Sequence record: SRR2962707_3772
Length of the DNA: 64,000 nt
Reading direction: 5' to 3' (one strand)
A program made the position numbers and the translations under genes. The number at the start of each line of letters is the position of its first letter. The first letter of the stretch is position 1. Below, one piece after another: positions 27,235-63,719 of the stretch. Under the pieces are notes generated by a model. It made no database searches. It was not told the DNA's origin and saw only the letters and a list, made by a program, of their open reading frames with translations.

Positions 27235-27242
27235 AAAGGCAG

Positions 27243-27345: not shown

Positions 27346-27361
27346 GGTTTGTTTTTGATGT

Positions 27362-27377
27362 TGGCACGGTTTCTGCT
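27362..27377 (+). promoter_or_regulatory. Sigma54 (-24/-12) promoter of pdo-sqr-sulP
   Basis: TGGCACGGTTTCTGCT with GG-N10-GC spacing. Confidence 0.85.
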
Positions 27378-27435
27378 CTATATAAATAATCAACCGACTT
27401 TCGGTTACCAATTGATTAAATAGGGGAAACAGATC

Positions 27436-28314
27436 ATGACTCATTCCGTGATAACGCCCAAGGTTGCTGCTTTTTTTGACAAAAACTCCAACACATTTTC
27501 GTATGTTGTTAAGGACCCTAGCTCAGTAAGCTGCGCCATTATTGATAGCGTTTTAGATTTTGATTACGCCTCCGGTAGTACCTCTTATAGCGGTGCGGAT
27601 GAAATTATAGAGTATGTCAAAGGGCATAAGCTGAGCGTTGAATGGCTTATTGAAACCCATGTTCATGCCGATCACCTTTCAGCCGCACCGTATTTACAAG
27701 ACAAACTGGGTGGGAAAATTGGTATTGGCCAACAGATCACCACAGTGCAAGACACCTTTGCCACTGTCTTTAATGAAGGCGCTGGTTTTAAGCATGATGG
27801 ATCACAATTTGATTATTTATTTCAAGATGGTGAGCACTATCAAGTAGGCGCCATGCCTTGTGTGGCAATGCACACACCGGGTCATACCCCAGCATGCTTT
27901 ACTCATGCCTTAGGAGACGCTGTTTTCGTTGGTGACACCTTGTTTATGCCTGACGCTGGTACGGCGCGTGCCGATTTTCCTGGCGGCGATGCGGCGACCT
28001 TGTTCGACTCCATCCAAAAAATATTGGCCTTGCCTGACGGTTATCGCATTTTTATGTGTCATGACTATTGCCCAAACGGTCGAGAGTTAGAGTACCAAAC
28101 GACGGTTAAAGCCCAGCGTGAAAGCAATATTCATGTGCGCAAAGACATCAGCAAATCGGTTTTTGTTGATTTGCGTGAAACACGAGATAAAACCCTCGAT
28201 ATGCCGCGACTTATTCTACCTTCGTTGCAAATTAATATGCGCGCTGGGCACATGCCAGAGCCTGAGGATAATGGTTTGGCCTATCTAAAAATCCCATTGA
28301 ATGCCTTTAAGTAG
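27436..28314 (+). CDS. pdo: Persulfide dioxygenase (MBL fold)
   Basis: ETHVHADHLSAA, HTPGHT, GDTLFMPD.GTAR.DFPGG and CHDY motifs. Confidence 0.88.
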   Translation: MTHSVITPKVAAFFDKNSNTFSYVVKDPSSVSCAIIDSVLDFDYASGSTSYSGADEIIEYVKGHKLSVEWLIETHVHADHLSAAPYLQDKLGGKIGIGQQITTVQDTFATVFNEGAGFKHDGSQFDYLFQDGEHYQVGAMPCVAMHTPGHTPACFTHALGDAVFVGDTLFMPDAGTARADFPGGDAATLFDSIQKILALPDGYRIFMCHDYCPNGRELEYQTTVKAQRESNIHVRKDISKSVFVDLRETRDKTLDMPRLILPSLQINMRAGHMPEPEDNGLAYLKIPLNAFK

Positions 28315-28387
28315 CTCACTTATTCACAACATGATTATAAAAAATATTTTAATAACAATGACTTAATAGAAATATCGAGAGATCACT

Positions 28388-29971
28388 ATGATACGCAAAC
28401 AAATAACTCGCCATTACTCAGTGTCTGAACAAATCAGCTTAGAGGATGTGGATCGCTTGGCCGAATCCGGCGTCACCCTGATCATTGGCAACCGACCAGA
28501 TAATGAAGAAGAAGGGCAGTTAGCCTTTGCTGAGATAGCCGCACGAGCAGAAAACAATCACATCAAAGCGCTGCATATTCCATTTGCTGGTGGCCAAATG
28601 CAGGCCACCGATGTGGCGGCGTTCAAGGCCGCGCTTAAAGAAGCGGATAACGTTCATGCTTTTTGCCGCACAGGGAACCGTTCTACCCTAATTTGGGAAG
28701 CGGCCAATCAAAGCGAAGTGATTTCAAAAGCCCATGACAAAGTCAAAGAATTCGATGTGGTGATTGTTGGTGCGGGGACGGCCGGAATCTCAACCGCGGC
28801 AAGCTTATTAAAGCGTAAACCCAGCGTGCGTATTTGTTTGATTGATCCTGCGACAGACCACTTTTATCAACCGGGTTGGACATTAGTGGGCGGCGGCGTG
28901 TTTAAAGCGGAAAAGACCCGTAGAAACATGGCGGATGTGATGCCCAAAGGTGTTGCATGGAATAAAACGTCAGTCAAAACCTTTCAACCTAGTGATAACC
29001 AAGTCACGCTTGAAGACGGTCAAGTGATTGCTTATCAGCAATTGGTGGTGGCCTCGGGTCTAAAATTAGATTGGGCGGCGATCGAAGGCTTGCCAGAAGC
29101 GCTAGGGCGCAATGGCGTGACGTCTAACTACCGATATGATCTGGCGCCTTACACTTGGGAACTGGCTAAGACGCTAAAAGGAGGCAAGGCGATTTTTACT
29201 CAACCACCAATGCCAATTAAGTGTGCCGGTGCGCCACAAAAAGCCATGTATTTGTCTTGCGATCATTGGTTAAAACAAGGGGCACTGGATGAGATAGAAG
29301 TGTCCTTTTACAACGCAGGAGGCGTCATATTTGGTGTGCCAGATTATGTGCCCGCTCTGCAGAGTTACATCGAAAAGTATCAGGTCAATACTTACTTTAC
29401 TCATAATTTAGTGAAGGTAGATGGACCAAACCAATTGGCTTACTTTTCAACGAAAGATGAAAATGACCAACAAATCGTAATCGAAAAATCCTTTGATATG
29501 CTCCATGTTTGTCCACCACAGTGTGCGCCTGATTTCATTCGTAATAGTCCACTTGTAGACGATGCAGGTTGGGTCGATGTGGATAAAGAGACACTGCAAC
29601 ATAAAGCATTTGCCAACATCTGGTCATTAGGGGATGTGGCCAATACACCAAATGCGAAAACCATGGCGGCTGCTCGCAAACAGGCGCCGGTTGTCGCCCA
29701 AAATATTTTTGATGTGCTCGAAGGTCGCCCGATTAAGGCAATTTACGACGGTTATGGTTCGTGTCCATTAACCGTTGAGCGCGGCAAAATTGTATTGGCA
29801 GAATTTGGTTATGGTGGTGTGGTCATGCCAACCTTTCCAAGTTGGCTTAACAAGGGCACCAAGCCGACACGGTTAGCCTGGATATTAAAAGAAGACCTAT
29901 TGCCGCCGTTTTATTGGCACGGCATGTTGAAAGGGTATGAATGGTTCGTTAAGCCAACAATGCGCAAATAA
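28388..29971 (+). CDS. sqr: Sulfide:quinone oxidoreductase with N-terminal DUF442 (PTP-like sulfurtransferase) domain
   Basis: N-terminal NRPDNEE and FCRTGNRS; then IVGAGTAG, YQPGWTLVGGG, KCAGAPQK and YDGYGSCP. Confidence 0.88.
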   Translation: MIRKQITRHYSVSEQISLEDVDRLAESGVTLIIGNRPDNEEEGQLAFAEIAARAENNHIKALHIPFAGGQMQATDVAAFKAALKEADNVHAFCRTGNRSTLIWEAANQSEVISKAHDKVKEFDVVIVGAGTAGISTAASLLKRKPSVRICLIDPATDHFYQPGWTLVGGGVFKAEKTRRNMADVMPKGVAWNKTSVKTFQPSDNQVTLEDGQVIAYQQLVVASGLKLDWAAIEGLPEALGRNGVTSNYRYDLAPYTWELAKTLKGGKAIFTQPPMPIKCAGAPQKAMYLSCDHWLKQGALDEIEVSFYNAGGVIFGVPDYVPALQSYIEKYQVNTYFTHNLVKVDGPNQLAYFSTKDENDQQIVIEKSFDMLHVCPPQCAPDFIRNSPLVDDAGWVDVDKETLQHKAFANIWSLGDVANTPNAKTMAAARKQAPVVAQNIFDVLEGRPIKAIYDGYGSCPLTVERGKIVLAEFGYGGVVMPTFPSWLNKGTKPTRLAWILKEDLLPPFYWHGMLKGYEWFVKPTMRK

Positions 29972-29983
29972 TGAGAGCTCAGC

Positions 29984-31693
29984 ATGATAGTTGAACGCGT
30001 TTTCCCCGCCGTTTCTTGGTTGAAAAGCTACAATCGAGTGCAGTTTGGCCAAGATGCTACGGCGGCCTTTATTGTGACCATGTTGTTGATTCCTCAGTCT
30101 TTGGCTTATGCCATGTTGGCTGGCGTGCCGCCGGAAGTTGGTTTGTATTCGAGTATTTTGCCCTTGGTGCTTTACGCGCTCTTTGGCACCAGTACGTCGT
30201 TATCCGTAGGGCCGGTGGCGGTGGCGTCTTTGATGACAGCCACCTCATTGGCTGCGATAGCAGAGCAGGGGACGGCAAGTTATTTGACTGGCGCCATTAC
30301 CTTGGCTTTGTTATCAGGCGTCATCTTGCTGGCGATGGGGGTGATGAAACTAGGCATGATCACCAATTTGCTTTCCCATTCGGTGATCTCTGGCTTTATT
30401 TCAGCCTCAGGGATCATTATTGCCTTGAGCCAGCTCAAGCATATCTTTGGTGTTCAGGCTCATGGCGACAATGTGGTGACACAATTGCTGAGCATGGCAG
30501 GCAATATTGGCCAGTTTAATGCCATGACGTGTGCGGTGGGCGTCTCGGTTGTGGCATTTTTGTTGCTGGCGAGGCGTTATGCAAAGCGCAGTTTGATGCT
30601 GATTAAAGTGCCAGAAAGCAACGCGACATCTTTAGCAAAAACCGCGCCCATCCTAGGCGTGTTGGCCAGTTTGGCATTGGTTTATGTGTTCGACTTACAG
30701 GCTTATGGCGTGGCCATTACAGGAGACATTCCAGCGGGCTTACCGCACTTCGGGTTGTCGCTGCCGTCTATAGAGTTGGTGAAAAGTTTGGCGTTACCAG
30801 CGTTGATGATTTCTGTTATTGGCTATGTGGAATCCATTTCTGTGGGCAAAACCTTAGGCGCAAAGCGACGAGAAAAGGTACAACCGAACCAAGAGCTGAT
30901 TGGTTTAGGCGCGGCCAATATTGCCTCCGGTTTGTCGGGCGGTTTTCCTGTGACAGGGGGCTTCTCTCGTTCGGTGGTGAATTTTGATGCTGGTGCTGTC
31001 ACTCAGCTGGCAGGAGTGATGACGGCCATTGGCATCATGATCGCCTCTTTGGTGCTGACTCCTGTGTTGTTCTTTTTGCCTAAGGCAACGCTCGCCGCCA
31101 CTATTATTGTGGCGGTGATGACTTTAATCGATTTTTCTATATTGAAAAAGACGTGGTTTTTTTCACGCAGTGATTTTTATGCGGTGTTGGCCACTGTCGT
31201 GATTACCCTTTTATTTGGTGTGGAAGTGGGCGTGGCTTCTGGCGTTGGTTTATCTGTCTTGTTGCATTTATCGCGGACTTCTCGGCCGCATGTGGCGGAA
31301 GTGGGCTTGATTGAAGGCTCTGAACATTTTCGCAACGTAAAACGCTATGACGTCAAAACCGCCGCTAATTTACTTTGTTTACGGCCTGATGAGAGCTTGT
31401 TTTTTGTCAATGCCGCGTTTCTTGAAGACTCGATTTTAGAGTCGATTAACCAGCGTCCTGCCATCACTCATGTGGTGATCCAGTGCAGTGCGGTCAATGA
31501 TATTGATTTTAGTGCATTAGAAATGCTGGAATCGCTAAACACAGAGCTGCAGGCGGCTAATATTTCATTGTCTTTGTCTGAAGTAAAAGGACCGGTAATG
31601 GACAGTCTAGAATTTAGTGGTTTTTTACAGCATCTAAGTGGCAAGGTGTTTCTATCGCAATATCAAGCCTTTAAGACATTGGCAAATGGGTAA
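29984..31693 (+). CDS. SulP-family anion transporter with STAS domain
   Basis: IPQSLAYAMLAG.P...GLY, NQELIGLG and GGFSRS motifs; C-terminal STAS domain. Confidence 0.9.
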   Translation: MIVERVFPAVSWLKSYNRVQFGQDATAAFIVTMLLIPQSLAYAMLAGVPPEVGLYSSILPLVLYALFGTSTSLSVGPVAVASLMTATSLAAIAEQGTASYLTGAITLALLSGVILLAMGVMKLGMITNLLSHSVISGFISASGIIIALSQLKHIFGVQAHGDNVVTQLLSMAGNIGQFNAMTCAVGVSVVAFLLLARRYAKRSLMLIKVPESNATSLAKTAPILGVLASLALVYVFDLQAYGVAITGDIPAGLPHFGLSLPSIELVKSLALPALMISVIGYVESISVGKTLGAKRREKVQPNQELIGLGAANIASGLSGGFPVTGGFSRSVVNFDAGAVTQLAGVMTAIGIMIASLVLTPVLFFLPKATLAATIIVAVMTLIDFSILKKTWFFSRSDFYAVLATVVITLLFGVEVGVASGVGLSVLLHLSRTSRPHVAEVGLIEGSEHFRNVKRYDVKTAANLLCLRPDESLFFVNAAFLEDSILESINQRPAITHVVIQCSAVNDIDFSALEMLESLNTELQAANISLSLSEVKGPVMDSLEFSGFLQHLSGKVFLSQYQAFKTLANG

Positions 31694-47431: not shown

Positions 47432-48877
47432 TTATAGTGGATAATGTTGCTCTGGGTTCTCAATAGTAATCCAGCGCACATCGGTAAATTCTGAAATGCC
47501 TGCTTGGCCACCAAAGCGTCCGTAACCAGATTCACCGACACCACCAAATGGAATTTGTGGCTCGTCAGAAACAGTAGCGCCATTAATGTGGCAAATACCG
47601 CTTTCTATTGCATTAGCACAGGCTAGCGCACGGTTGATATCTTGAGAAAACACCGCTGCGGATAAACCATATTCTGTGTCATTCGCAATGCGAATGGCTT
47701 CTTCATCGCCACTGACGCGGATGATGGATTTCACCGGGCCAAAGCTTTCTTCGTTAAAAATGCGCATGGTGTCGTTCACGCCATCGAGCAAGGTTGGTGA
47801 GAAAATCGCCCCATCACTGTCGCCACCACAAACAAGGGTAGCGCCTTTGGCAACCGCATCATTAATCAAGGTGTGCATTTTTTCGCTTGCATCAGGGTTC
47901 ACCAGTGAGCCTAGCGCGACCTTGTCCCTAGGGTTGCCCCAAGTGAGTTTGGCGGCACGAGCAACCAATTTCTCGACAAATTCATCGGCAATTTTTTCGT
48001 CTACGATCAAGCGTTCCGTCGACATACAGATTTGCCCTTGATTCATAAAAGAACCAAAAATCGCCGCGTTTACCGCACCATCAATATTGGCATCAGAGAG
48101 CACAACAAGTGGTGCTTTGCCGCCTAACTCCAGCAGTGCAGGCTTTAAATTTGCGCCTGCTAAACCACCGATAATACGGCCAATAGGGCTGGAACCAGTG
48201 AAGTTTACATGGCGTACTTCAGGGGCTTCAATCAAGGCTTTTACGATTGATGGCGCGTCTTTAGGGTCGTTGGATAACACATTAATAACGCCTTCAGGGA
48301 TACCCGCTTCCAAGAAGCAATCCACGATTAGACGCTGGGTTTGTGGGCAAAGTTCGGCGCTTTTAAGGATCACGGCATTACCACAGGCGATCGGCATAGC
48401 AACCGCGCGGGTGCCTAGAATAATAGGCGCATTCCACGGCGCTATTGCTAAGCAAACCCCCCTGGCTTTGCGTACTGATAAAGACAATATGCCGGGTTTA
48501 TTAGACGGAATCACTTCCCCGCCAATCTGAGTGGTTAAAGACGCAGATTCACGCAATACATCCACCGCCAACTTAACATTAAATCCAGCCCATACCGCGG
48601 TAGCACCGGTTTCTGTCATCATGGCATCAACGAATAAGCTGAGTTTTGACTCCATGATGTCAGCCGCTTTGTTTAATAAGCTGCGTCGTGTAGCTGGGCT
48701 GCTAAGAGACCATTTTTCAAAGGCTTGTTGTGCCGCTTTTACTGTTATCTTGACGTCTTCTAGGGTGGCGGCGGCAGAGACAGACGCCACGTCACCGGTG
48801 ACCGGATCAAATCGGGTGTAGAGGTTGTTGTTCTGGGCAGAGCAGTCTTGTCCGCCAATACTTAATAAAACAGTCAT
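47432..48877 (-). CDS. vdh: Aromatic aldehyde dehydrogenase (vanillin/salicylaldehyde dehydrogenase-like)
   Basis: ETGAT..WAGFN, IAPWNAP.ILG.RA, LELGGKAP, NQGQICMSTER, GICHING.TV.DE and the WITI...QHYP terminus. Confidence 0.75.
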   Translation of the reverse strand: MTVLLSIGGQDCSAQNNNLYTRFDPVTGDVASVSAAATLEDVKITVKAAQQAFEKWSLSSPATRRSLLNKAADIMESKLSLFVDAMMTETGATAVWAGFNVKLAVDVLRESASLTTQIGGEVIPSNKPGILSLSVRKARGVCLAIAPWNAPIILGTRAVAMPIACGNAVILKSAELCPQTQRLIVDCFLEAGIPEGVINVLSNDPKDAPSIVKALIEAPEVRHVNFTGSSPIGRIIGGLAGANLKPALLELGGKAPLVVLSDANIDGAVNAAIFGSFMNQGQICMSTERLIVDEKIADEFVEKLVARAAKLTWGNPRDKVALGSLVNPDASEKMHTLINDAVAKGATLVCGGDSDGAIFSPTLLDGVNDTMRIFNEESFGPVKSIIRVSGDEEAIRIANDTEYGLSAAVFSQDINRALACANAIESGICHINGATVSDEPQIPFGGVGESGYGRFGGQAGISEFTDVRWITIENPEQHYPL

Positions 48878-48919
48878 ATTATTGTCCTTATTCACTGATT
48901 ATTCTGGTGTTACTTGAGT

Positions 48920-49705
48920 TTATAAGTTGAGTTTTTCAACCGTTTCGGCCGCCTCTAAACCACCGTCGGTTGAGATGTTATTACCATTGACCCATTTTGC
49001 GGCATCGGAGCAAAGGAACAAAATGACCGGTGCTATGTCATCTGGTGTGCCTGCGCGTCCCACTCGGTTGATGTCTTTGCTGGCTTTTTCTTCACCTAGC
49101 ACTTGACGGAATTGAGCGAGAATAGGGGTTTCTACAGGGCCTGGAGAGACGGCATTGATGCGAATGCCTTTGTCTTTAAATTGTTTTTGCTGAGAGGCAA
49201 TTTTATTCCAAACCAACAAAATTTCCTTAGAAATAGGGTAACCAAGCTGGTTTGGAATATCGAAATCTTTGATGACCTTATCGATATCAGGAAAACCATC
49301 GATACGGGCAATGGCGGACGCTCGTTCTGTGTTATCTCGCCAGCCAAATCCTGCCATGGAGGCAACGTTGATAATACTGCCGCCTGGACGCATTTTCAGT
49401 GCCGCACCTTCTGATAGGTTTTTCAAACCAAAAAAGTTAATTGCCAGTGTGATATTGGCACCCGCGATACCAGAAACACCTGCGACATTGCACAGCGCAT
49501 CGATGTTTTCTGGCAAGGCGTCAAGAATAGCTGAGACACCCGCTTGGGTCGATAGGTCGCCTTGTATAAAAGTACCAATTGTTTTTTCAGGCTTGACCAC
49601 ATCGATACCGATGACATTAGCACCCATTTCAGACGCTAATTCAGCACAACGATGAGCGATACCACTAGCAACCCCTGTAATGACGATCGTTTTTCCTGCT
49701 AACAT
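48920..49705 (-). CDS. Short-chain dehydrogenase, coniferyl-alcohol dehydrogenase (CalA)-like
   Basis: TGVASGI, DALCNVAGV, NVAS.AG..W, YPISKE and SPGPVETPIL motifs. Confidence 0.75.
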   Translation of the reverse strand: MLAGKTIVITGVASGIAHRCAELASEMGANVIGIDVVKPEKTIGTFIQGDLSTQAGVSAILDALPENIDALCNVAGVSGIAGANITLAINFFGLKNLSEGAALKMRPGGSIINVASMAGFGWRDNTERASAIARIDGFPDIDKVIKDFDIPNQLGYPISKEILLVWNKIASQQKQFKDKGIRINAVSPGPVETPILAQFRQVLGEEKASKDINRVGRAGTPDDIAPVILFLCSDAAKWVNGNNISTDGGLEAAETVEKLNL

Positions 49706-49735
49706 AATTTTTCTACCTTATTTATCAGTGGATGT

Positions 49736-50581
49736 TTACTTGTCTTTATTTTCCAATACAAGTAAGCCGTAATGTGTGTTGGAGACGGGGCAGTGTGTGA
49801 ATCGATAGACTTGTTCGACATCCTCGTCTAATGCCCCTCGCATGATGAACCACATAATGGCTTCGATCCCTTCGGATCCAGTTTCACGCAGATATTCGGT
49901 GTGACTGGTGTGTTTGATTTTTTCGGGCGCTGAGACTAAGTCATCTAACCATTGCTCGTCATAATCCGCATTAATCAAGCCGGCTCGTTCGCCTTGTAAT
50001 TGATGAGAAAGTCCGCCAGTACCGAAGACGGCTACCTTGGTGTCTTTTGGGTAGGATTCCACGGCTTTGCGAATGGCTTTGCCTAAATTAAAGCAGCGAT
50101 TTCCTGTCGGTTGAGGGTATTGAATAACATTGACGCACAGTGGGATGACCTCGCAAGGCCATTCTTCTGGCTGTCCAAACATAATAGAAAGCGGCACGGT
50201 AAGACCATGGTCAACGGGCATTTCATTAACGATGGTCATATCAAACTCATCCATGATTAATGATTCTGTAATGTGCCATGCTAGTTCAGGATTGCCTTTG
50301 ACGACGGGCACTTTGCGTGGGCCATAACCTTCATCTGCGGGTTGAAATTCGGGCGCGACACCGATGGCAAAGGTGGAAATAGATTCCAGAGAAAACGCTG
50401 AGGCATGGTCGTTAAATACCACAATACAGACATCAGGTTTGACTTCTTCGATCCATTTTTTGGCAGGTTCCATGCCGTCAAAAACAGGTTTCCAATAGGC
50501 TTCTTGCGTCTTATTATGATCAACGGCCGCACCAATGGCAGGGATATGAGAGGTGCCAACACCAGCAATGATTTTGCCCAT
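49736..50581 (-). CDS. ligB: Protocatechuate 4,5-dioxygenase-type extradiol dioxygenase, beta subunit
   Basis: Fe-ligand motifs TSHIPAIG, FNDHAS and GSEGIE.IMW; VDHG..VP and GG.SHQLQG.RAG motifs. Confidence 0.9.
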   Translation of the reverse strand: MGKIIAGVGTSHIPAIGAAVDHNKTQEAYWKPVFDGMEPAKKWIEEVKPDVCIVVFNDHASAFSLESISTFAIGVAPEFQPADEGYGPRKVPVVKGNPELAWHITESLIMDEFDMTIVNEMPVDHGLTVPLSIMFGQPEEWPCEVIPLCVNVIQYPQPTGNRCFNLGKAIRKAVESYPKDTKVAVFGTGGLSHQLQGERAGLINADYDEQWLDDLVSAPEKIKHTSHTEYLRETGSEGIEAIMWFIMRGALDEDVEQVYRFTHCPVSNTHYGLLVLENKDK

Positions 50582-50979
50582 TATTTTGTCTCCTTCTTAC
50601 TGCGGTTGCCATCGATAGAGCGACCACCAGTGATCATCATGTGTTTGAATTCTTCTTCTGTCATGCCTGAGTCAGACATGGCCGCGCCTGCCGCTTGCAT
50701 GGTCATGCCATCAAAAATAGCCAGTTTGAAGGTGTAATAGATGTTGCCGCCTAGGCGAAGCATTTCGAGCCAGTTGCGTTCTAAAAGGGCTTTTCGTTGT
50801 TCATTTGTGACTGGGAATTTTGCTAAATAAGCTTCTTCGTCTTTTCGGAATTCGTCACGATTCTCTTGCTTATTCAATGACATGCAAAACATGTTTAGGT
50901 AGTAACCCTTACGGTAATGGGTCCCGTCGAACACATAGGTTCCTGGAATGTCGTGATAGTCTCTTTCTTGGTCCGTCAT
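50581..50979 (-). CDS. ligA: Protocatechuate 4,5-dioxygenase-type extradiol dioxygenase, alpha subunit
   Basis: DIPGT.VF, KGY.LN.FCMSL, GGNIYY..KL and MMI.GGRS motifs; 1-bp overlap with ligB. Confidence 0.9.
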   Translation of the reverse strand: MTDQERDYHDIPGTYVFDGTHYRKGYYLNMFCMSLNKQENRDEFRKDEEAYLAKFPVTNEQRKALLERNWLEMLRLGGNIYYTFKLAIFDGMTMQAAGAAMSDSGMTEEEFKHMMITGGRSIDGNRSKKETK

Positions 50980-51113
50980 CACTTTTCCTCAGCTTAAGAT
51001 TGTATTTTTTATTGTTACCAGCCGTGCTAAGCCTTGAGTAAGCAAACGTCTGAGAGCGATGCCAGTATAGGAATTTGCAAAACAAGGAACAATTAGGCTA
51101 AATAGAACAAACT

Positions 51114-52131: not shown

Positions 52132-53382
<1,251 letters not shown>

Positions 53383-53391: not shown

Positions 53392-54303
53392 TTATTCGCC
53401 AGTATCTAACGGCTCTTGATGCTGGCGAATAACGCTGTCTTTAAAGGCTTTCGGTGACAAGCCTGTGTGCTTTTTAAAGAAGCGCGAAAAATAACTAATG
53501 TCCTCAAAACCGAGCTGATAAGCCACTTCCGACACCGATTGAAAAGAATAAGCCAAATTCACTTTCGCCTCACTGATGACCCTGTCATGAATGATCTTTA
53601 ACGCGGATTTCCCCGTCACAGTGTGACTAATGCGATTCAAATGCGTCACCGAAATACGCAGTTGCATGGCGTATTCAGAGATGGGTTTTTTGTCCGCAAA
53701 AGAGTGACTGACCAGCTGTTGGAATTGTCGGTAATACCACAGGTTTCTGTCTTTTTCAGAAGGCCTTTGATGCGCTGAAAATACATTGTTAGCACGCATT
53801 ATTTGGCTAAATATCAAGCCCAACAAGCAGCGCATGGACACGCCTCGAGCGGGCTGACGGTTTCTGTATTCAGAGCGTAGCTGGCGAAATAAAGTGAGAA
53901 TCTCTGAGGTCGCATCTTCTTGTCCATTGCGCTCAATTACGATGGCTTTATCCAAGGATTGCAAACAGCTTTGCGAGCTTGCCAGCAAATCATTGAGGTA
54001 CTCGCGCGACACAGTGACTATGGTGCCTTCGATGTCTTTTTGCATTTCAAAACTGTGCACATCCCCAGCGGGAACGAAACAGCAGCAGGGGGTATTTAAG
54101 GGAATGAGCGCATTGTTTAAGTACATGGTGCCGGTGCCAGAGAAGAAATACACCAGATGACACAAATCATCGTGACGATGGGGTTCAATCACCCAGTCAT
54201 TTACTTCAGTGGAGCTTTTGACGCTGTCTATATGGACGGGATTCAGTGAAAAATCGACATCAAATTGTCCGTAGACTCGATAATTTGGAATGGCTTTTTG
54301 CAT
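53392..54303 (-). CDS. pobR: AraC-family regulator, PobR-like
   Basis: IPNYRVYG, PHRH cupin and C-terminal EVAYQLGFEDISYFSRFFKK; adjacent to pobA. Confidence 0.7.
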   Translation of the reverse strand: MQKAIPNYRVYGQFDVDFSLNPVHIDSVKSSTEVNDWVIEPHRHDDLCHLVYFFSGTGTMYLNNALIPLNTPCCCFVPAGDVHSFEMQKDIEGTIVTVSREYLNDLLASSQSCLQSLDKAIVIERNGQEDATSEILTLFRQLRSEYRNRQPARGVSMRCLLGLIFSQIMRANNVFSAHQRPSEKDRNLWYYRQFQQLVSHSFADKKPISEYAMQLRISVTHLNRISHTVTGKSALKIIHDRVISEAKVNLAYSFQSVSEVAYQLGFEDISYFSRFFKKHTGLSPKAFKDSVIRQHQEPLDTGE

Positions 54304-54411
54304 GCTATGTCTCACCAAATGAATGAAAGGTAAGCGCTCAGAGACCTCGTTCACCATGATAACAGAATGCGTAACTAGAGCATCTTGATGAACGAGGCTG
54401 CACTGGGCTGA

Positions 54412-55896
54412 TTACAATAAGCCTCCTTCAGACGCTGAGATGGAATGCATTTCCTGAAACGCGATAATGCCTTCATAGCCTAAATTTCGGCCCACGCCAC
54501 TGTGTTTATGTCCGCCGAATGGGGCGCGACTGTCTTGCGCTAATGGCCCGTGATTGTTTAGGTAGGTGTAGCCAGCTTCGAGACGTCGAGCAAGGCGCAA
54601 TGCCTGATCTCGATCCTCTGTCCAGACGGAGGAGCATAAACCGAACTCCGAATCATTGGCGAAGTGGATGGCCTCATCGACGGAATCGAAAGGGATGATC
54701 GGCAGCACAGGACCAAATTGCTCTTCTTTGACCACGCGTAAATTAAGGTGTGGATTGAGCACTAGAGTTGGTTTTTGAAAGTAACCTTCTGCGTACAAGG
54801 CCGTGTCTGGCACCTGACCAAGCTCCAACACATCACAGCCAGATTGTTTGGCTTCGGCTATCATGCTGGTGACAATCCCAAGCTGCTTTTTATTGTTCAG
54901 TGGGCCCATGGTGGTCGTGGCTAGGGTGCCATCGCCGATGACCTGAGCAGAGGCCATTTGAGTGAGCCCTGTTACCACTTCGTCATAGCGTGAACGATGA
55001 ACATAAAGGCGTTTTAAAGCCATACAAATTTGCCCAGAAGACATGAAAGCGGCGAGGTACATGCGTTTAAACGCCGCGTCATCTAATTTAGCGTCAGCGA
55101 GGACAATGCCCGCATCGTTGCCGCCAAGCTCTAACGTAACAGGCACCAGATTATCGGCGGCGACTTTCATCACATGCTTACCGACCGCTACGCTGCCGGT
55201 AAAGTTTATTGTGCGTATCGCTGGGTGAGATAACAAGGCATCGCCGATATTGGCCGATGACCCAGTTAGCAAGTTGATTACCCCAGGCGGTAGCATTTCG
55301 GCCATGAGTCCCACGGTCAGTGCGGTGACCAAGGCCGATTCTTTTGACGGTTTGACCACCACGCAATTGCCCGCGATCAGAGCTTGGGGCAATTTGGCGC
55401 CAAGAATGGAGATGGGCCAGTTCCAAGGCACCACGAGCGCTGCCACGCCGCGAGCTTGTCGCGTGATGATGGTGTCATAGTGTGGGCCAGATAATGTTTC
55501 GTCTTGGCTTAAGCGCTCTGCGTAAGAGGCCACTTGGCGAAAACGATCACTAATGCGCGATATTTCGATATGAGCTTCATGCAAGATTTTACCGTGTTCA
55601 CGAGTAAAGAGCCGCGCACGAGCTTGCAGCTCTTCTGGGTTATTCACCAAGTGATCAGCAATATTGAGTAGGTATTGGGCTCGTTCTTGGTAGGATAAAG
55701 CCGACCATGCTGGCATTGCATCGCGGGCTGCATTGCAGGCTAAATCCACATCCGCCACGGTGGCGCTGGCCGCGTACCCGACTAATTCACTTGGGCGCGC
55801 GGGGTTATATTGCGGGTAGGTTTCACCCGATACGGCATTTTGATATTGGCCATTAATATAGAGTTGTGTGGTTACAGTATTATGGTTGATTGGCAT
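54412..55896 (-). CDS. Aldehyde dehydrogenase family protein
   Basis: VPWNWP, FTGS, TLELGGND, SSGQICMA, EEQFGP and PFGG.K.SG motifs. Confidence 0.88.
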   Translation of the reverse strand: MPINHNTVTTQLYINGQYQNAVSGETYPQYNPARPSELVGYAASATVADVDLACNAARDAMPAWSALSYQERAQYLLNIADHLVNNPEELQARARLFTREHGKILHEAHIEISRISDRFRQVASYAERLSQDETLSGPHYDTIITRQARGVAALVVPWNWPISILGAKLPQALIAGNCVVVKPSKESALVTALTVGLMAEMLPPGVINLLTGSSANIGDALLSHPAIRTINFTGSVAVGKHVMKVAADNLVPVTLELGGNDAGIVLADAKLDDAAFKRMYLAAFMSSGQICMALKRLYVHRSRYDEVVTGLTQMASAQVIGDGTLATTTMGPLNNKKQLGIVTSMIAEAKQSGCDVLELGQVPDTALYAEGYFQKPTLVLNPHLNLRVVKEEQFGPVLPIIPFDSVDEAIHFANDSEFGLCSSVWTEDRDQALRLARRLEAGYTYLNNHGPLAQDSRAPFGGHKHSGVGRNLGYEGIIAFQEMHSISASEGGLL

Positions 55897-55976
55897 GCTT
55901 ATCACCTTCGATCAATTTTTATTTTTAGTGGATATCGGCGAGTATCTAGGGAAAAGAAGGCGCTTCCTTCCCTTAT

Positions 55977-56007
55977 TCCCTGTTTGCCAAATCATGGCGA
56001 ACAGGGA
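55977..56007. other. Intergenic stem-loop between the OsmC-like and ALDH genes
   Basis: TCCCTGTTTGCCA-aatca-TGGCGAACAGGGA. Confidence 0.45.
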
Positions 56008-56048
56008 GGATGACCATTCGTTATTTGACGCATTAACCGTTTGGCAAA

Positions 56049-57245
56049 TTAATACCCTGACAAGCGGATTTTTGTTTTAAGGTCCGCTTTACAAAAGGCG
56101 TGTAAAAAACAGGTTTGTTCAGAAACGTCGAGAATCGTTTTAGCAAACTCATCGTCTTCGCTGCTTTCTAAATAAACATGAGTTTCCAGCGGATCCGCTT
56201 TTCCGACTTCACCAGTCCCACCAGAGGCGCCGCCTAGGGTGAAATGAGAATCTTGCAAAATGCGGTAATCCGTCAAGTTTTTGCGCTTCATCTTCGCATA
56301 GCGACCAAACTGAGTCATAAAGCAAAAGCCAATGCCTGCGGACATATACGAGGTGGCGTCCGGCGCTCGCCCTAAACCACCGTTTTCTTCTCCTTCTTCT
56401 GATAATAGGGTGAAAACGGATCCGTGTGGGTTGTATAAATGTTGGACGATTTCTTTTATGCCATCAGGGCGTAATGTGCAAATGCCGCGTAGGTGAAGTA
56501 GGCGATCTTGATGATCGGTTAAGCTAGAGCTGGCGCCATGCAAGGAGTTTTCATGTTTGGGTGTTAATCCTCCTTTTACGCAAAGATCTTCCCAGTTGCC
56601 GGTGGCGGGCTCGGCGAGATCCATTTTGACCGCTGGGTCGGTTTCGACGGGTTTGCCCAGCGGTTGTGCTTTTTCTGGTGCCAGTTCGTTACCGTTGTGG
56701 CTAAGGGTAAATAGGCTCTCATGATGGCCGCGCATGAGACCATTAAGAGGGGAGGCTGCGGTGGCGTCCATGAGCAGCCTTGTTAGGGTATTGCGGTCAG
56801 CATCTGAGTCAATCTGTGCTTCTAAATCCACATCGTAGGCGTTGGCGATCATGGTGCCGCGGGCCAGGCTGCCTTTCATGCTGTAATAATTGTCTTGGAT
56901 TAGGCGAATCTTGTTGATCTTGATATTACGCAACTTGGCCAGCGCTAAAATCTCATTCATGTAAGAGGCAATCATGCCCACCGTTAGAAAACATAATGGC
57001 GCGGGGGCACAATCAGTGCCGTCCAAATAAGCGCCTTCATCACTGGCAAGACGCCAAGTGGTGCCTGTTCGAGCGGAGGTCACGAGGGCTTCTTTTTGAA
57101 ACACAGTTAGTGAGCGAACCGCGGTTCGTAAATCTTCTCCTAAACGGGCTTTGGGCGCACTCATGCCTGCCGCCGCCGCGTTATCTACCTTGTAAAAAAG
57201 CGGCTTGCCACTGTCGATTAATTTGTTTTCTGCAGTCTTGTTCAT
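56049..57245 (-). CDS. Protein with two tandem OsmC/Ohr-like domains, function unknown
   Basis: Repeat 1 LASDEG.YL.GTD.APAP...GMIASYM...AASP; repeat 2 LSEEG....G.G.APD...AGIGFCFMTQ...EQTCF; likely start ATG 57245. Confidence 0.65.
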   Translation of the reverse strand: MNKTAENKLIDSGKPLFYKVDNAAAAGMSAPKARLGEDLRTAVRSLTVFQKEALVTSARTGTTWRLASDEGAYLDGTDCAPAPLCFLTVGMIASYMNEILALAKLRNIKINKIRLIQDNYYSMKGSLARGTMIANAYDVDLEAQIDSDADRNTLTRLLMDATAASPLNGLMRGHHESLFTLSHNGNELAPEKAQPLGKPVETDPAVKMDLAEPATGNWEDLCVKGGLTPKHENSLHGASSSLTDHQDRLLHLRGICTLRPDGIKEIVQHLYNPHGSVFTLLSEEGEENGGLGRAPDATSYMSAGIGFCFMTQFGRYAKMKRKNLTDYRILQDSHFTLGGASGGTGEVGKADPLETHVYLESSEDDEFAKTILDVSEQTCFLHAFCKADLKTKIRLSGY

Positions 57246-57455
57246 CGTTATACCTATCGCTCTGTGTTTCATGGTGCGAAGTGAATCATTAAGAACGAGG
57301 CGTATGAGGCTGTTCTGTATGGCTTCAATTCTTCTTTCATTGGCTTGGCGCATGGCCCTTGTTGTGCAAAGTGGACCTTGGTTTTTATCGTGAACCTCAT
57401 TGCGCTTGAAGCCGATAAAAACACACAATAAAGCGCTCTGTCAAATAAATGAACC

Positions 57456-57476
57456 AAGGTTCACTATGTGAACCTT
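57456..57476. promoter_or_regulatory. Perfect palindrome, probable IclR operator
   Basis: AAGGTTCAC-TAT-GTGAACCTT between the divergent OsmC-like and IclR genes. Confidence 0.7.
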
Positions 57477-57631
57477 TGGCTTGATTCCTTCTTTATGCAC
57501 ACCGCCTTTTGGTGGCCGTTTTAAAGGCGCTAGCGACCTTGTCGTGTGCTGTTTGTGGTGTGGTAAAACATTTGAGTTTGCCTATCTCAGGCCGCATAAT
57601 GAACCAACGTTGAAGCTGACATAGAGCAAAA

Positions 57632-58486
57632 ATGAAACAGATAGAAAAGGATGGACTCACTGTCGATACCAGTGTGAAAGGGGCGGCTAGCGGAGTGCAA
57701 TCATTGGCTCGTGGCTTAAAAGTATTAGCGGCTGTGAATGAGTTCACCCCCGCGACTGTCACGCAAATAGTGGCCAGTACTGGGTTTCCTAAGGCGACGG
57801 TAATTCGGTTATTAAAAACGCTGAAAAACGAAGGTTATATCGATTTAAACCCAGAAGCGGGTGGCTATAAAACATTACCAAAAGTCAGGTTACTGGCCAG
57901 CTCGATGATTTCAGACAATAGTTTTGCTGTATCTGCTCGCCAATTTCTAAACGATTTTGCGCAAATACTAAAATGGCCAAGTGATTTACTGATCGCAGAG
58001 GGCTCATCCATGGTGGTTCAGGCCTCAAATCGAGATACGGCGCCGATCCACATAAAACGCTTTGAGCAAGGTCGTTTTTCTCTGTTGTTATCAGCAAGTG
58101 GTATTGCGTATCTTTCTGCGCTTCCAGCCAAAAAACGACAAGAGGTCGTGAAGGCGACGGTCAAGCTTCAACCCTCGTCGGAGGATCTTGAGCTGCTGAC
58201 CGAGAAAGTCATGCAAGAGATTGCACACTGCCAACAAAATGGCTTTGCTGTGACCGATTATCACGCGCCGATTGAAGGCACCAGAGCTGTTGCGATTCCA
58301 CTGCTGTATGAGGGCGAGCCATTTGGGGCGTTAGCGATGTTGTTTATTCGAGACGCGGTCAGTGATGAGCAATTACAGACCTTTTTATTGCCCCAATTAC
58401 GTGACGCGGCGGGTGCTGTGGCGCGTTTATACCAGCAACATGGCGCTGGTATGACATTGACACCAGTGCCTCACGAGGAGGCATGA
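57632..58486 (+). CDS. IclR-family (MhpR-like) regulator
   Basis: VQSLARGLKVL...TGFPKATVIRLLKTL..EGY and SASG.AYL motifs. Confidence 0.88.
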   Translation: MKQIEKDGLTVDTSVKGAASGVQSLARGLKVLAAVNEFTPATVTQIVASTGFPKATVIRLLKTLKNEGYIDLNPEAGGYKTLPKVRLLASSMISDNSFAVSARQFLNDFAQILKWPSDLLIAEGSSMVVQASNRDTAPIHIKRFEQGRFSLLLSASGIAYLSALPAKKRQEVVKATVKLQPSSEDLELLTEKVMQEIAHCQQNGFAVTDYHAPIEGTRAVAIPLLYEGEPFGALAMLFIRDAVSDEQLQTFLLPQLRDAAGAVARLYQQHGAGMTLTPVPHEEA

Positions 58487-60636: not shown

Positions 60637-61719
60637 ATGAAAAAAATACTCAACTTAGTCTGTGCGTCTGCATTGTCTATCAGCTGTGTACTTGCGTTGC
60701 CTGCGCAAGCAAAAGAAGCCGATGTGCCATCGACAATTAACTGGACGGTACCCTTTGGGGTTGGTGGCGGTACTGATGTGTGGGCGCGATTTATTGCTCC
60801 TTACCTAACAAAGTACATTCCAAGCAATCCGACTGTGGTTATCCGTAACCAACCAGGTGGCGGCTCCATTACCGGCGCAAACTTGTTTTACAAGCGTGCC
60901 AAAGACGATGGCAGCACCATGCTAGCGACGTCGGCATCGACCTTGTTCCCATATATGTTGGGTGACAAACGAGTGCGTTATAACTTCGATAAATGGGTGC
61001 CATTAATGGCAAGCCCAACGGGTGGTGTGGTTTACGTACAGCCAGGTTTGGGTGTGAAATCAGCCGCGGATATCGATAAATTAGATGGCATGACGCTACC
61101 GTTTGGTTCACAAGGACCAACACGTCTTGAATTGCCTGTCTTGATCGCCTTCGAAATGCTGGGTTTGGACGTGAAACCTGTGTTCGGTATGAAAAGCCGT
61201 GGTGCGGGTCGTTTGGCGTTTGAACGTGGCGAAGCGAAAATTGACTTCCAAACAACGTCTGCTTACTTAAACTCAGTGGTTGATCTAGTAAACAATGACA
61301 AAGCGATTCCATTGTTTTCTCTAGGTGTTATGAATAAAGAGGGTAAAGTAGTACGTGATCCTGCGTTCCCTGATCTACCCACTTTTCAAGAAGTGTATGC
61401 TCAGAAATTTGGCAAACAACCTTCTGGTATAGAGTATTCGGCTTACTCTAAATTCTTTGCAGCGGGCTTCGCTTTCCAAAAAATGATCTTTATCCCATCT
61501 GACACACCAACAAATGTGATCAATGAATACCGTAATGCTGTTCAAACTATGTTGAAAGACCCTAAATTCATTGAAGATGCCGCGGTTCAAGTGGGACCTT
61601 ACCAAAGCATTGTAGGCATTGATGCAGCACAGCACATTCAAGAGGCTCTTACAGTATCTCCTGAACTTTATACTTGGATTTCAGGCTGGTTAAAAAAGAA
61701 ATTTGATTACACCCTGTAA
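60637..61719 (+). CDS. Tripartite tricarboxylate transporter substrate-binding protein (TctC/Bug-like)
   Basis: Signal peptide; VPFGVGGGTDVWAR, N.PGGG and RLAFERGE motifs. Confidence 0.85.
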   Translation: MKKILNLVCASALSISCVLALPAQAKEADVPSTINWTVPFGVGGGTDVWARFIAPYLTKYIPSNPTVVIRNQPGGGSITGANLFYKRAKDDGSTMLATSASTLFPYMLGDKRVRYNFDKWVPLMASPTGGVVYVQPGLGVKSAADIDKLDGMTLPFGSQGPTRLELPVLIAFEMLGLDVKPVFGMKSRGAGRLAFERGEAKIDFQTTSAYLNSVVDLVNNDKAIPLFSLGVMNKEGKVVRDPAFPDLPTFQEVYAQKFGKQPSGIEYSAYSKFFAAGFAFQKMIFIPSDTPTNVINEYRNAVQTMLKDPKFIEDAAVQVGPYQSIVGIDAAQHIQEALTVSPELYTWISGWLKKKFDYTL

Positions 61720-61751
61720 GTAGTTTGTTGTTTTATATTTAGGAGTTATTC

Positions 61752-63719
61752 ATGGCTGTGCTTCTTAGTGCTCTAGACCAAATATTATCGTTAACGCACC
61801 TAGTCTATTTGGTGGGTGGCGTATTGGTCGGTCTTGTTGTTGGTATTATTCCTGGACTTGGCGGCATTGCCGGCATGTCCTTGCTACTACCGTTTTTATA
61901 TGGAATGGAGCCTTCAGTTGGTCTTGGTATGCTGATGGGGTTGGTTGCTGTGATTCCCACAGGTGATACTTTCACCTCTGTGTTAATGGGGATACCAGGA
62001 TCCAGTTCTTCGCAAGCCACAGTCATGGATGGTTTTCCATTGGCGAAAAAAGGCCAGGCAGCACGCGCGCTGTCTGCGGCTTTTTTATGCTCAATGATTG
62101 GCGGTGTGGTTGGTGCGATTGTACTGAGTGTCTTCATTTTGGTGGCACGACCTGTGGTACTCGCATTCTCATCTGCTGAATTGTTTATGCTGACTTTATT
62201 AGGCCTGAGTGTGGTTGCGGCCTTATCCGGCGGGAATTTATTTAAAGGCTTAGCCGCTTGTGGTTTTGGCCTATTAATTGGTTCTGTTGGCTCGGCGCCT
62301 GCCACTGGTGAGTTCCGTTTTACCCTAGGCATTGATTACTTGTATGACGGTATTCCATTGGTTGTCGTGGGTTTGGGTATCTTTGCGCTACCAGAAATCA
62401 TCAGCTTATTGGTGCAAAACAAAGCCATTGCTTCTACGCCAAATAAATTAGGTCATGGTTTAAAACAGGGTTTCAAAGACGTGTTTGCCAACTTGCCTTT
62501 GGTCGGTAAATCGTCTGTATTTGGTAGCTTGATCGGTGCGATTCCTGGTTTAGGTGGTTCGGTTGTTGACTGGATGACATACAGTTTCGCGATGAATGGC
62601 AGTAAAGACACGTCCCAGTTTGGTAAAGGGGACATTCGTGGTGTTATTGCGCCTGAGTCTGCGAATAACGCTTGTGCTTCAGGTAGTATGATTCCAACCT
62701 TGTTGTTTGGTATTCCAGGCTCGGGTTCGGCTGCGGTTTTTCTAGGTGGTATGTTATTGCTGGGTCTTCAGCCTGGTGTTTCCATGATCACCACGAACTT
62801 AGACCTGACTTACACTATTATTTGGTCTTTGGCGTTGGCGAACATTTTAGGGGCGATCTTTTGTATTGCTTTTACGCGACCTATTTCACTATTAACCTAT
62901 GTGAAATTTTCAATACTTGCGCCGATTATCTTAACCTTGATCTTGTTTGCTGCGTATCAAGCAACGCGCAGTCTAGGTGATTTCATGGTGCTGGGTGTCA
63001 TTGCAACAATTGGTGTGATGATGAAAGGGGCCAACTGGCCACGTCCTGCTTTCTTGATTGGTTTTGTGCTTTCTTCTGGCGCTGAAAACTACTTTTTCCA
63101 AAGCATTCAGTTTTACGGTAGCTCTTGGTTTCTACGCCCTGGTGTAATTGCACTGGCTGCCTTGATTGTATTGGGCTTTGTATTACCTCCAATGCTGAAG
63201 AAAAGAAGAGCGGCAAAAGCCAGCACGCAGCCTAAAACCGGTCTAGAGCCAGAAGAGCCTAGTGTTAAAACGGTGTCGGCGACGGATTGGGTATTGTTAG
63301 CGGTATTGGGTGCATCCGGCTTATACGCTTTGGTTGATGTATGGAATATGTCGACCTTGACGAAAGCTTTCCCAATTATTTCTATTGCCATTGTGTTGTT
63401 CTCTGTGGCGATGCTGATTGTGAAATTTATCCGAGAAAAACATCAGCGAGTGGCGTCTAACTTAAGAACAGACCTTGTGTACATTGTTGGCTTCTTTATG
63501 ATTGCTTACGGTTATTACACGCTGGGATTTGTCACCACGACCTTTGTCTTCTCGTTCTTGTTCTTGCGTTATTTGGCGAAGGCGACGTATTTAAAATCGT
63601 CTACCATTGCCGTTTGCTTGGTGATCTTCCTCGTGGTTTTAGGTCGCATCATGAACATAGAATACCCAGAAGGCTACTTTGACCCCTATTTCTTTGATGT
63701 GGTTAATCGTTTTTTCTAA
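61752..63719 (+). CDS. Tripartite tricarboxylate transporter large permease TctA with C-terminal TctB-like extension
   Basis: GIIPGLGG, GIPG...SQAT..DG.PLAKKG, APESANNA, IPTLLFGIPGS and RPA..IGFVL motifs, then extra TM helices. Confidence 0.85.
   Translation: MAVLLSALDQILSLTHLVYLVGGVLVGLVVGIIPGLGGIAGMSLLLPFLYGMEPSVGLGMLMGLVAVIPTGDTFTSVLMGIPGSSSSQATVMDGFPLAKKGQAARALSAAFLCSMIGGVVGAIVLSVFILVARPVVLAFSSAELFMLTLLGLSVVAALSGGNLFKGLAACGFGLLIGSVGSAPATGEFRFTLGIDYLYDGIPLVVVGLGIFALPEIISLLVQNKAIASTPNKLGHGLKQGFKDVFANLPLVGKSSVFGSLIGAIPGLGGSVVDWMTYSFAMNGSKDTSQFGKGDIRGVIAPESANNACASGSMIPTLLFGIPGSGSAAVFLGGMLLLGLQPGVSMITTNLDLTYTIIWSLALANILGAIFCIAFTRPISLLTYVKFSILAPIILTLILFAAYQATRSLGDFMVLGVIATIGVMMKGANWPRPAFLIGFVLSSGAENYFFQSIQFYGSSWFLRPGVIALAALIVLGFVLPPMLKKRRAAKASTQPKTGLEPEEPSVKTVSATDWVLLAVLGASGLYALVDVWNMSTLTKAFPIISIAIVLFSVAMLIVKFIREKHQRVASNLRTDLVYIVGFFMIAYGYYTLGFVTTTFVFSFLFLRYLAKATYLKSSTIAVCLVIFLVVLGRIMNIEYPEGYFDPYFFDVVNRFF

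Follow-up and report, generated by a model that had tools for sequence, protein, structure and literature searches.

What does a protein with the fold of the OsmC/Ohr hydroperoxide-resistance proteins do among genes for aromatic catabolism? The question is raised by a 64,000-nucleotide stretch of DNA from sequence record SRR2962707_3772 (hereafter the window, meaning the whole stretch), in which the gene for a tandem-OsmC protein, here called OsmC2, lies beside an aldehyde dehydrogenase (ALDH) gene, divergent from an IclR-family regulator and near pobA. OsmC2 has an OsmC fold in a predicted model, retains one conserved site, and belongs to a large, conserved family with repeated operonic linkage to the funnel of benzylic alcohols, aldehydes and sulfate esters into 4-hydroxybenzoate and protocatechuate. 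From this setting we infer a thiol-reductase chemistry, a substrate class, a place in the order of steps and a mode of regulation. The composite reading that we favour, with somewhat less than even confidence, is that OsmC2 may be a thiol reductase whose target would be a reactive species, oxidised or electrophilic, at the PobA step or immediately ahead of it.

Predicted fold and putative active site of OsmC2

56049..57245, minus strand: tandem-OsmC protein OsmC2, 398 amino acids (aa), likely ATG at 57243-57245 (NF041052, AlphaFold2, VIA-align)
56676..57146, minus strand: N-terminal OsmC-like half, residues ~34-190, with S94 and S165 at the cysteine positions (NF041052)
56052..56528, minus strand: C-terminal OsmC-like half, residues ~240-398, with C308 and C379 (PF02566)

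The open reading frame (ORF) listed for this gene, 56049-57428 on the minus strand, begins at a TTG and has 459 aa. Relatives of OsmC2 found by homologue search are 398-404 aa long and their alignment begins at MNKTAENK, which makes the ATG at 57243-57245 the probable start codon. The frame is open for 61 codons 5' of this ATG (57246-57428), an extension that is not common to the relatives; a 459-aa form, 99% identical, tops the homologue list. The N-terminus is devoid of a hydrophobic stretch.

A preliminary description of this locus, made from its letters, had proposed two OsmC-like repeats in a protein of roughly 400 aa, and profile searches bear this out. The NCBIfam model NF041052, 'OsmC-related (seleno)protein', matches the whole protein in two stretches with 134.8 bits (cut-off 95) and recognises each half separately, the N half at residues 45-185 with E 1.8e-17 and the C half with E 6.9e-21. 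The halves also align to each other, at 17% identity and E 2e-6. The Pfam OsmC model PF02566 gives 49.8 bits against a threshold of 27.5 for the whole protein, at residues 292-392; with isolated halves it gives 37.5 bits for the C half and a sub-threshold 15.5 bits (E 0.024) for the N half. All the motifs quoted in that description are present: GMIASYM at residues 90-96, AASP at 163-166, GIGFCFM at 304-310 and EQTCF at 376-380. As it had stated, the Cys pair is missing from the first repeat, where S94 and S165 stand, and kept in the second, as C308 (codon 56322-56324, in a C-F-M-T motif) and C379 (codon 56109-56111).

The structure of OsmC2 was predicted with AlphaFold2 (AF2) from an alignment of 64 diverse relatives, giving a model with pLDDT 95.1 and pTM 0.94. 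A Foldseek search with this model returned the OsmC-like entry 3cje as the sole match at E<=0.001, and OsmC/Ohr entries dominate below it. VIA-align, which is independent of Foldseek, placed 12 chains at Z 7.5-11.4, nine of them titled OsmC/Ohr-type, before a drop to Z 5.7 at the next chain; 3cje superimposes with Z 11.4 and a root-mean-square deviation of 2.4 over 142 residues. Most of these top single OsmC chains, of ~140 residues, cover model residues ~34-398, drawing their first strands from the N half and the remainder from the C half. Because single OsmC chains align across both halves in this way, OsmC2 can be read as an intertwined pseudo-dimer, one chain of which, in the predicted model, reproduces the arrangement of the OsmC/Ohr homodimer. 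The OsmC-like fold, the fused pseudo-dimer and the single site, all suggested at the outset, are thus upheld by the predicted model together with the conservation of the Cys pair.

Conservation in the 64-sequence alignment is concentrated in one site. The C half keeps C308 in 61/64 sequences, T311 in 62/64, C379 in 62/64 and H382 in 61/64, and the N-half counterparts of the Cys pair are serines (S94 in 37/64, S165 in 49/64). C308 and C379 both pair with the two cysteines of 3cje in the alignment. OsmC2 has one Cys-Cys site per chain, compared with two per OsmC dimer. The N half has nevertheless not simply decayed: W64 (64/64), R65 (62/64), D69 (64/64) and E70 (62/64) are near-invariant, and the C-half equivalent of R65 is Arg in only 38/64 sequences and Thr in the window protein. 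This pattern and the model suggest that the strand of the N half carrying Trp64-Arg65...Asp69-Glu70 completes the C308/C379 site.

The closest known systems share this architecture in part. Like the OsmC/Ohr thiol peroxidases (E. coli OsmC, Pseudomonas and Xylella Ohr; PF02566), OsmC2 has an alpha/beta fold with an intertwined two-unit arrangement, peroxidatic and resolving Cys positions, and a strand ahead of the first helix that bears a conserved Arg. It differs from them in that its units are fused in a 398-aa chain with cysteines in one site only and an N half that falls below the Pfam threshold, and in that it lies in catabolic operons under IclR, GntR or LysR regulators rather than beside an OhrR-type repressor. 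The best matches to the C half are two structural-genomics proteins of unassigned function, Jann_2040 (Jannaschia sp. CCS1, PDB 3cje) and GSU2788 (PDB 2opl), of which 3cje is the only solved relative found by sequence (E 3.3e-5). Unlike OsmC2, these are single-domain proteins of 150-180 residues, presumed homodimers, 22% identical to it and lacking a fused second half. A third group comprises marine OsmC-like selenoproteins (COG1765-type) from the Sargasso Sea, for which the motif table of Zhang et al. 2005 (PMC1088965) lists UxxT, and the NF041052 family. The motif C308-F-M-T311 corresponds to the tabulated U-x-x-T, and this match supports a redox role for C308, as far as that table extends. 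OsmC2 departs from these proteins in using Cys, and the NF041052 model describes a single domain of 144 positions.

The family is large. Of the 8000 candidates that a word-indexed search with OsmC2 scored, at least 2288 matched at E<=0.001; the top 120 have 345-459 aa and 63-99% identity, and where they bear a name at all it is 'OsmC family protein' or 'hypothetical'. An exhaustive search of representatives at 50% identity gave 539 matches at E<=0.001, of which 178 reach E<=1e-30, and full-length two-domain members in this set extend down to ~30% identity. In a protein atlas, every cluster retrieved bears the name 'putative OsmC family protein'. Matches of odd length were considered as possible fusions (P0222, P0266, P0209, P0168, P0194) and set aside: they carry unrelated domains (GH95, PAD) or none, and look like gene-call or assembly chimeras. 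An 'OsmC-like family protein' of Epibacterium mobile, reported from proteomics to be raised 119-fold by UVB (PMC6308992), may or may not belong to this family and was also left out of the argument.

Genomic setting of the family

The setting of these genes was surveyed by scanning genomes, which yielded 304 OsmC2 relatives; the best 80 were taken, giving 79 loci in Pseudomonadota, Bacteroidota and Acidobacteriota, with OsmC2 identities of 53-80%. Neighbours were counted by tblastn with reference proteins in flanks of up to 8 kb, with identity thresholds and context labels set by the author; this was chosen over counting called genes because ORF calling is crude in the high-GC loci. Neighbours were assigned to families by Pfam and NCBIfam scans of representatives. 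Abbreviations in the following counts are tripartite ATP-independent periplasmic transporter (TRAP), metallo-beta-lactamase (MBL) and short-chain dehydrogenase/reductase (SDR).

DctP-type TRAP binding protein: 22/79 loci
GntR-FCD regulator: 16/79 loci
Orthologous ALDH (59-69% identity): 12/79 loci
Ankyrin-repeat protein: 12/79 loci
Short MBL-type alkylsulfatase: 10/79 loci
PobA: 9/79 loci
CalA-type SDR: 8/79 loci
IclR: 8/79 loci
Type-I sulfatase: 6/79 loci
LigC: 6/79 loci
PcaH: 6/79 loci
TonB-dependent receptor: 6/79 loci
LigA: 5/79 loci
Reductive dehalogenase: 2/79 loci (L004, L046)

An aromatic-catabolic gene occurs in 23 of the 79 loci, a sulfatase in 13, and either of these or the orthologous ALDH in 32. 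This survey, which had been proposed from the outset, places OsmC2 in a context of aromatic catabolism rather than in a classical ohr/ohrR-type stress locus. The locus had also been described as an orphan module, a label that no longer holds, because several classes and phyla share the OsmC2-ALDH pair and its ties to PobA, to sulfatases and to TRAP transporters. A quick maximum-likelihood tree, made without a completed careful search, places the window protein in a clade of 12 rows (SH-aLRT 99) that mixes Gammaproteobacteria, Alphaproteobacteria and Flavobacteriaceae, and all 12 have aromatic, sulfatase or ALDH neighbours. Such neighbours are found in 19 of the 34 rows of a second group, mostly Rhodobacterales.

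Individual operons make these linkages concrete, and PobA is the step to which the relatives of OsmC2 are most tightly coupled. The Hoeflea locus L068 carries TAXI, sulfatase, MBL sulfatase, OsmC2 and PobA genes in this order, with overlapping stop and start codons and no ALDH. L077 has the order sulfatase, MBL sulfatase, TAXI, OsmC2, SDR and ALDH, the last 62% identical to that of the window, with ligC, ligB and ligA alongside. A minimal arrangement is found in L027 (Marinovum algicola FF3; 6626-13263) and L009, where a tandem pair of OsmC2 paralogues, divergent from a GntR-FCD regulator, precedes PobA and DctPQM with no other enzyme; either paralogue shares 54-55% identity with the window protein. 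In L004 (SAR92 clade) the order is OsmC2, LysR, ALDH, RdhA (with reductase) and PobA. This RdhA (11772-14999), two genes from OsmC2, is a 1075-aa protein with an NADH-oxidoreductase/ferredoxin-like C-terminus that scores 217 bits against 160 with TIGR02486; a reductive dehalogenase in L046 is 54% identical to it. The Colwellia locus L005 has two OsmC2 copies, one followed by an SDR, an MBL-type sulfatase, a TonB-dependent receptor and a sulfatase. The Flavobacteriaceae loci L006 (720-5812) and L007 have a SulP-like permease, an MBL sulfatase, OsmC2 and DUF3179 in a row, and the nesting of these Bacteroidota proteins within a proteobacterial clade suggests horizontal transfer of the block. L018 combines a divergent IclR with OsmC2, ALDH and DctPQM, and in L023, where ORF calls are poor, IclR, OsmC2 and ALDH matches lie side by side. 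A TauE/SafE-type sulfite/anion exporter adjoins OsmC2 in the ALDH-DctPQM-OsmC2 locus L076 (9176-9949), a single instance. The TRAP binding proteins have unnamed 'TRAP solute binding proteins' as their best matches among solved structures; some of these entries may bind aromatic acids, a point that was kept out of the argument.

Around OsmC2 itself, the window encodes the following.

47432-48895: second ALDH, beside the ligAB/SDR block
48920..50982, minus strand: ligA and ligB (protocatechuate 4,5-dioxygenase) with a coniferyl-alcohol-dehydrogenase-type SDR (profile scans)
48920-49705, minus strand: the coniferyl-alcohol-dehydrogenase-type SDR of that block (NF009092, 317.9 bits, cut-off 242)
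52141..53382, plus strand: PobA, 4-hydroxybenzoate 3-monooxygenase (TIGR02360, 611.1 bits, cut-off 538.7)
53392..54357, minus strand: AraC-family regulator, between pobA and the ALDH gene
54412..55905, minus strand: ALDH, 143 bp downstream of OsmC2 (PF00171, 451.9 bits)
57632..58486, plus strand, divergent: IclR-family regulator (HTH_IclR PF09339, E 8.5e-12; IclR_C PF01614, E 2.4e-7)

The ALDH is co-oriented with OsmC2, as first described, on the same strand across the 143-bp gap. Its translation contains the catalytic motifs LELGGN and GQIC, its relatives begin at the MPINHN methionine (55896), and no NCBIfam equivalog reaches its cut-off, the top score being 359.8 bits against 615. The island further includes 4-oxalomesaconate tautomerase and TctC/TctA. 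At 60637-63719 a 655-aa TctA permease with a TctB-like C-terminal extension comes after a very weak TctC-like binding protein (E 1.5e-4) and the tautomerase.

The nearest genome compared, G001, carries an OsmC2 identical to that of the window and extends this picture. At 15-23 kb from OsmC2 it has an operon, divergent from a LysR regulator, with the order DctP, DctQ, DctM, sulfatase, MBL sulfatase, ALDH and SDR, followed by a SulP/STAS sulfate permease.

G001:C1:174010-185230 (L086 4010-15230), outside the window: type I sulfatase/short MBL alkylsulfatase operon

If the two assemblies are collinear, this operon lies just past the right end of the window. It has an SDR 57% identical to that of L077 and a sulfatase at 48% identity with its counterparts in L068 and L077; the MBL-type sulfatase is 44% identical to the L068 protein. 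The single operon of L077 is therefore split in this organism into two blocks of one island. Its gene content suggests that the G001 operon may import and desulfate a sulfated aromatic alcohol, by a route so far undescribed. No reductive-dehalogenase domain was found in G001.

Two sulfur-related clusters lie elsewhere in the window. That at 25040-31693 is a sulfide-handling cluster whose members include a peroxiredoxin, a sigma-54 activator, a SulP permease, a Blh-like sulfur transferase/dioxygenase domain protein (389 bits, cut-off 625) and an SQR-like flavoprotein (201 bits, cut-off 525). That at 9261-13994 encodes the sulfoacetaldehyde dehydrogenase SafD (863 bits, cut-off 700), adjoined by a class-III aminotransferase and a MocR-type regulator, and is probably a taurine or hypotaurine-type sulfonate route.

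The divergent regulator and its candidate operator

57449..57476: candidate IclR operator, TGAACC-AA-GGTTCAC-TAT-GTGAACC (sequence scan)

The regulator divergent from OsmC2 was first called an MhpR-like IclR. Its divergent orientation and its membership in the IclR family stand. For the MhpR and PcaR-PcaU-PobR subgroups no model supports a closer label: NF007342 (111 bits against 251) and TIGR02431 (85 bits against 285) both fall below their cut-offs. The perfect palindrome reported between the two genes, AAGGTTCAC-TAT-GTGAACCTT, is found exactly at 57456-57476 (9+3+9). Even with 3 mismatches allowed, the window holds no second site of this kind, and 100 shuffles produced none; additional TGAACC half-sites lie near 57391-57396 and 57600-57605.

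L001 and L003 repeat the divergent arrangement of an IclR orthologue and the OsmC2 operon, and in L005 an orthologue lies two genes away from one of the OsmC2 copies (64-70% identity in these loci); the IclR relatives in L018 and L023 are more distant, at 46-47% identity. The intergenic regions by orthologous IclR genes hold counterparts of the operator, TGGTCCAC-N3-GTGGACCA in L001 (819-837) and ATGGACC-GG-GGTTCAT in L003 (6823-6852). The exact core GTTCAC-N3-GTGAAC occurs in 0/79 loci, and looser GGTyCA inverted repeats occur in those two orthologous intergenic regions only. This suggests a common GGTyCA half-site for these IclR regulators, and the divergent IclR probably controls OsmC2 and ALDH from the predicted GGTTCA-type operator at 57449-57476.

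Regulators close to OsmC2 across the loci are of IclR, GntR-FCD, LysR or AraC type. No MarR/OhrR-type regulator appears in the recurrent neighbour clusters. Of the 63 immediate neighbours left otherwise unclassified, 56 were scanned (E<=1e-6), again without such a match. The window locus is likewise not of the Ohr-OhrR type, an IclR taking the place of an adjacent MarR-family repressor. A scan for promoters and terminators found sites no more numerous than in shuffles and no terminator-like site between OsmC2 and ALDH. Among contigs of sequencing runs, one run, probably of DNA, covers the whole stretch. Two metatranscriptome runs contribute one short contig each, at 57134-57396 (OsmC2 start and leader) and 57952-58210 (inside the IclR gene), which as contigs only demonstrate neither transcription nor co-transcription.

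Proposed role and rival explanations

The reading that we favour assembles these elements into a conserved, mostly marine aromatic route. Sulfated and/or halogenated p-hydroxybenzyl or p-hydroxybenzoate compounds would be taken up by TRAP, TAXI-type TRAP or TonB-dependent transporters and desulfated by the MBL-type alkylsulfatase and type-I sulfatase. The side chain would be oxidised by the CalA-type SDR and next by the ALDH encoded beside OsmC2, and the product would pass to PobA, protocatechuate and LigAB. OsmC2 would act at or just before PobA on a peroxide, a quinone or quinone methide, or a ring substituent, and would not be the aldehyde maker. C308 would be the attacking thiolate of the surviving one of two symmetric sites, in its CxxT motif, and C379 the resolving thiol, so that turnover would pass through a C308-C379 disulfide. 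A general cellular reductant is proposed for its re-reduction because no dedicated partner is encoded nearby. Algae and seagrasses make sulfated and/or halogenated phenolics in quantity. Guessing chemically from this natural-product background and from the enzymes encoded, we put forward algal bromophenol sulfates and similar compounds as the substrate class.

Routes to 4-hydroxybenzoate and protocatechuate include those of the CalA/CalB dehydrogenases, of TsaC/TsaD (toluenesulfonate) and of the aerobic reductive dehalogenases BhbA/NpRdhA. As in CalA/CalB- and TsaC/TsaD-type routes, the neighbours of OsmC2 supply an SDR and an ALDH for a benzylic side chain, then PobA and protocatechuate 4,5-cleavage. 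Like BhbA/NpRdhA, the RdhA of L004 is fused to a reductase, and this 1075-aa protein resembles those self-sufficient aerobic dehalogenases. To our knowledge OsmC-fold proteins, MBL-type sulfatases and type-I sulfatases are absent from all the described routes, and a literature search found no CalA/CalB-, Tsa- or RdhA-type route with an OsmC-fold protein or such sulfatases.

Several observations weigh against a thiol reductase in this route. No thioredoxin, lipoyl or reductase partner is linked to OsmC2. The closeness of R65 to C308 is taken from alignment ranges and not from model coordinates, and the operator is drawn from three loci only. In Ohr/OsmC an acidic residue accompanies the catalytic Arg; the position before C308 has no clearly conserved counterpart of this partner, D296 being present in just 34/64 sequences. 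The literature search returned no biochemical or genetic data on any member of the family. In 47 of the 79 loci the flanks have no scored aromatic, sulfatase or ALDH gene, and the 12 loci of a Pseudohongiellaceae-like clade, which lack aromatic genes, keep a fixed gene order beside an ankyrin-repeat gene. Because of these 47 loci and of that clade's synteny with unrelated genes, a general housekeeping role of OsmC2 is possible.

The same 47 loci without aromatic context favour another explanation, which we consider unlikely: OsmC2 would be a plain OsmC-type organic-hydroperoxide or H2O2 reductase, a fused dimer retained near flavin monooxygenase and catechol pathways solely on account of the peroxides that these produce, and would perform no pathway step. 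The Cys pair, the CxxT and the conserved Arg of the OsmC-type site are all kept, and the nearest solved structures are OsmC/Ohr hydroperoxide-resistance proteins. A stress enzyme of this kind is, however, harder to reconcile with its embedding in L068 among transporter and catabolic genes whose stop and start codons overlap, with the tandem paralogues that precede pobA in L027, and with catabolic-type regulators nearby, no OhrR/MarR being seen among the neighbours scanned. The conservation of the family, at 53-80% identity over 79 loci, is also unusually high.

Quite unlikely, in our estimate, is a thiol-dependent trimming enzyme that would remove a ring substituent from a substituted 4-hydroxybenzoate and pass the product to PobA. 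Here the C308 thiolate, a selenolate in relatives, would attack Br or I, or would accept a sulfate group that then leaves as sulfite, and C379 would resolve the intermediate to a disulfide; deiodinases and Bmp8 may offer an analogy. The minimal operon of two OsmC2 genes, PobA and TRAP genes without another enzyme fits such a reaction, as do the co-localisation of BhbA/NpRdhA-like self-sufficient dehalogenases in L004 and L046 and of sulfatases in 13/79 loci, and the TauE/SafE-type exporter of L076. The selenocysteine-containing relatives with UxxT, as far as the tabulated motifs describe them, resemble other selenoenzymes that attack electrophilic atoms. On the other side, a dehalogenase or sulfatases already present in the same loci could make OsmC2 redundant, RdhA occurs in just 2/79 loci and is absent from G001, and we know of no OsmC-fold enzyme for substituent removal. 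Taken to the whole double-OsmC family, the idea becomes a new cofactor-free, Cys- or Sec-dependent class of reductive enzymes that would strip Br or I, or perhaps sulfate (as sulfite), from halogenated or sulfated hydroxybenzoates of algae and leave unsubstituted 4-hydroxybenzoate for PobA, a generalisation that we regard as decidedly improbable. If true, it would provide a widespread marine alternative to cobalamin-dependent reductive dehalogenases, as part of an undescribed sulfated bromophenol-type pathway.

The preliminary description had instead proposed a new aldehyde-forming reaction of OsmC2 whose product the adjacent ALDH would oxidise. The conserved pairing of OsmC2 with the orthologous ALDH, in 12/79 loci and several OsmC2 clades, is in keeping with this, and so are the L018 block, with no SDR called between its genes, and the adjacency of IclR, OsmC2 and ALDH in L023. 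CalA-type SDRs are, however, the usual source of such aldehydes; they accompany the pair in L077 and L078, adjoin OsmC2 with a different ALDH in L001, and occur elsewhere in this organism's island (window 48920-49705, and G001). OsmC2 and PobA stand without any ALDH in L027 and L068, and we know of no OsmC-fold chemistry that yields an aldehyde. Because SDRs can supply the aldehyde step and OsmC2 also occurs without ALDH, the idea is not needed; nothing found here supports an aldehyde-generating OsmC2, and we judge it very unlikely. Least credible of all is an accessory, non-catalytic subunit of short MBL-type alkylsulfatases (~420-470 aa, without a third domain), for although an MBL-type sulfatase with only Lactamase_B and Alkyl_sulf_dimr domains is near OsmC2 in 10/79 loci, directly upstream in L068 (8-bp overlap) and L006 (5-bp gap) and from two different MBL-sulfatase subgroups, 69/79 loci have no such neighbour, the two genes are ~19 kb apart in this organism, and the strictly kept Cys pair favours catalysis.

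The operons in which OsmC2 is repeatedly placed combine PobA, LigAB or PcaGH and dehydrogenases for benzylic alcohols and aldehydes with sulfatases of two kinds, permeases for sulfate, importers of TRAP or TonB-dependent type and an occasional reductive dehalogenase. This company points to a coherent catabolic route for sulfated and/or halogenated phenolics in marine bacteria; a literature search found no description of such a sulfated-aromatic route or of the OsmC2 family. This family is large and unusually conserved and is labelled only 'OsmC family protein'. The compact operons of its cultivable carriers, which include Marinovum algicola FF3 and Colwellia sp. RE-S-Sl-9, make its function directly testable. 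Once found, the substrate of OsmC2 would assign a function to thousands of genes and could show a new chemistry of the OsmC fold.

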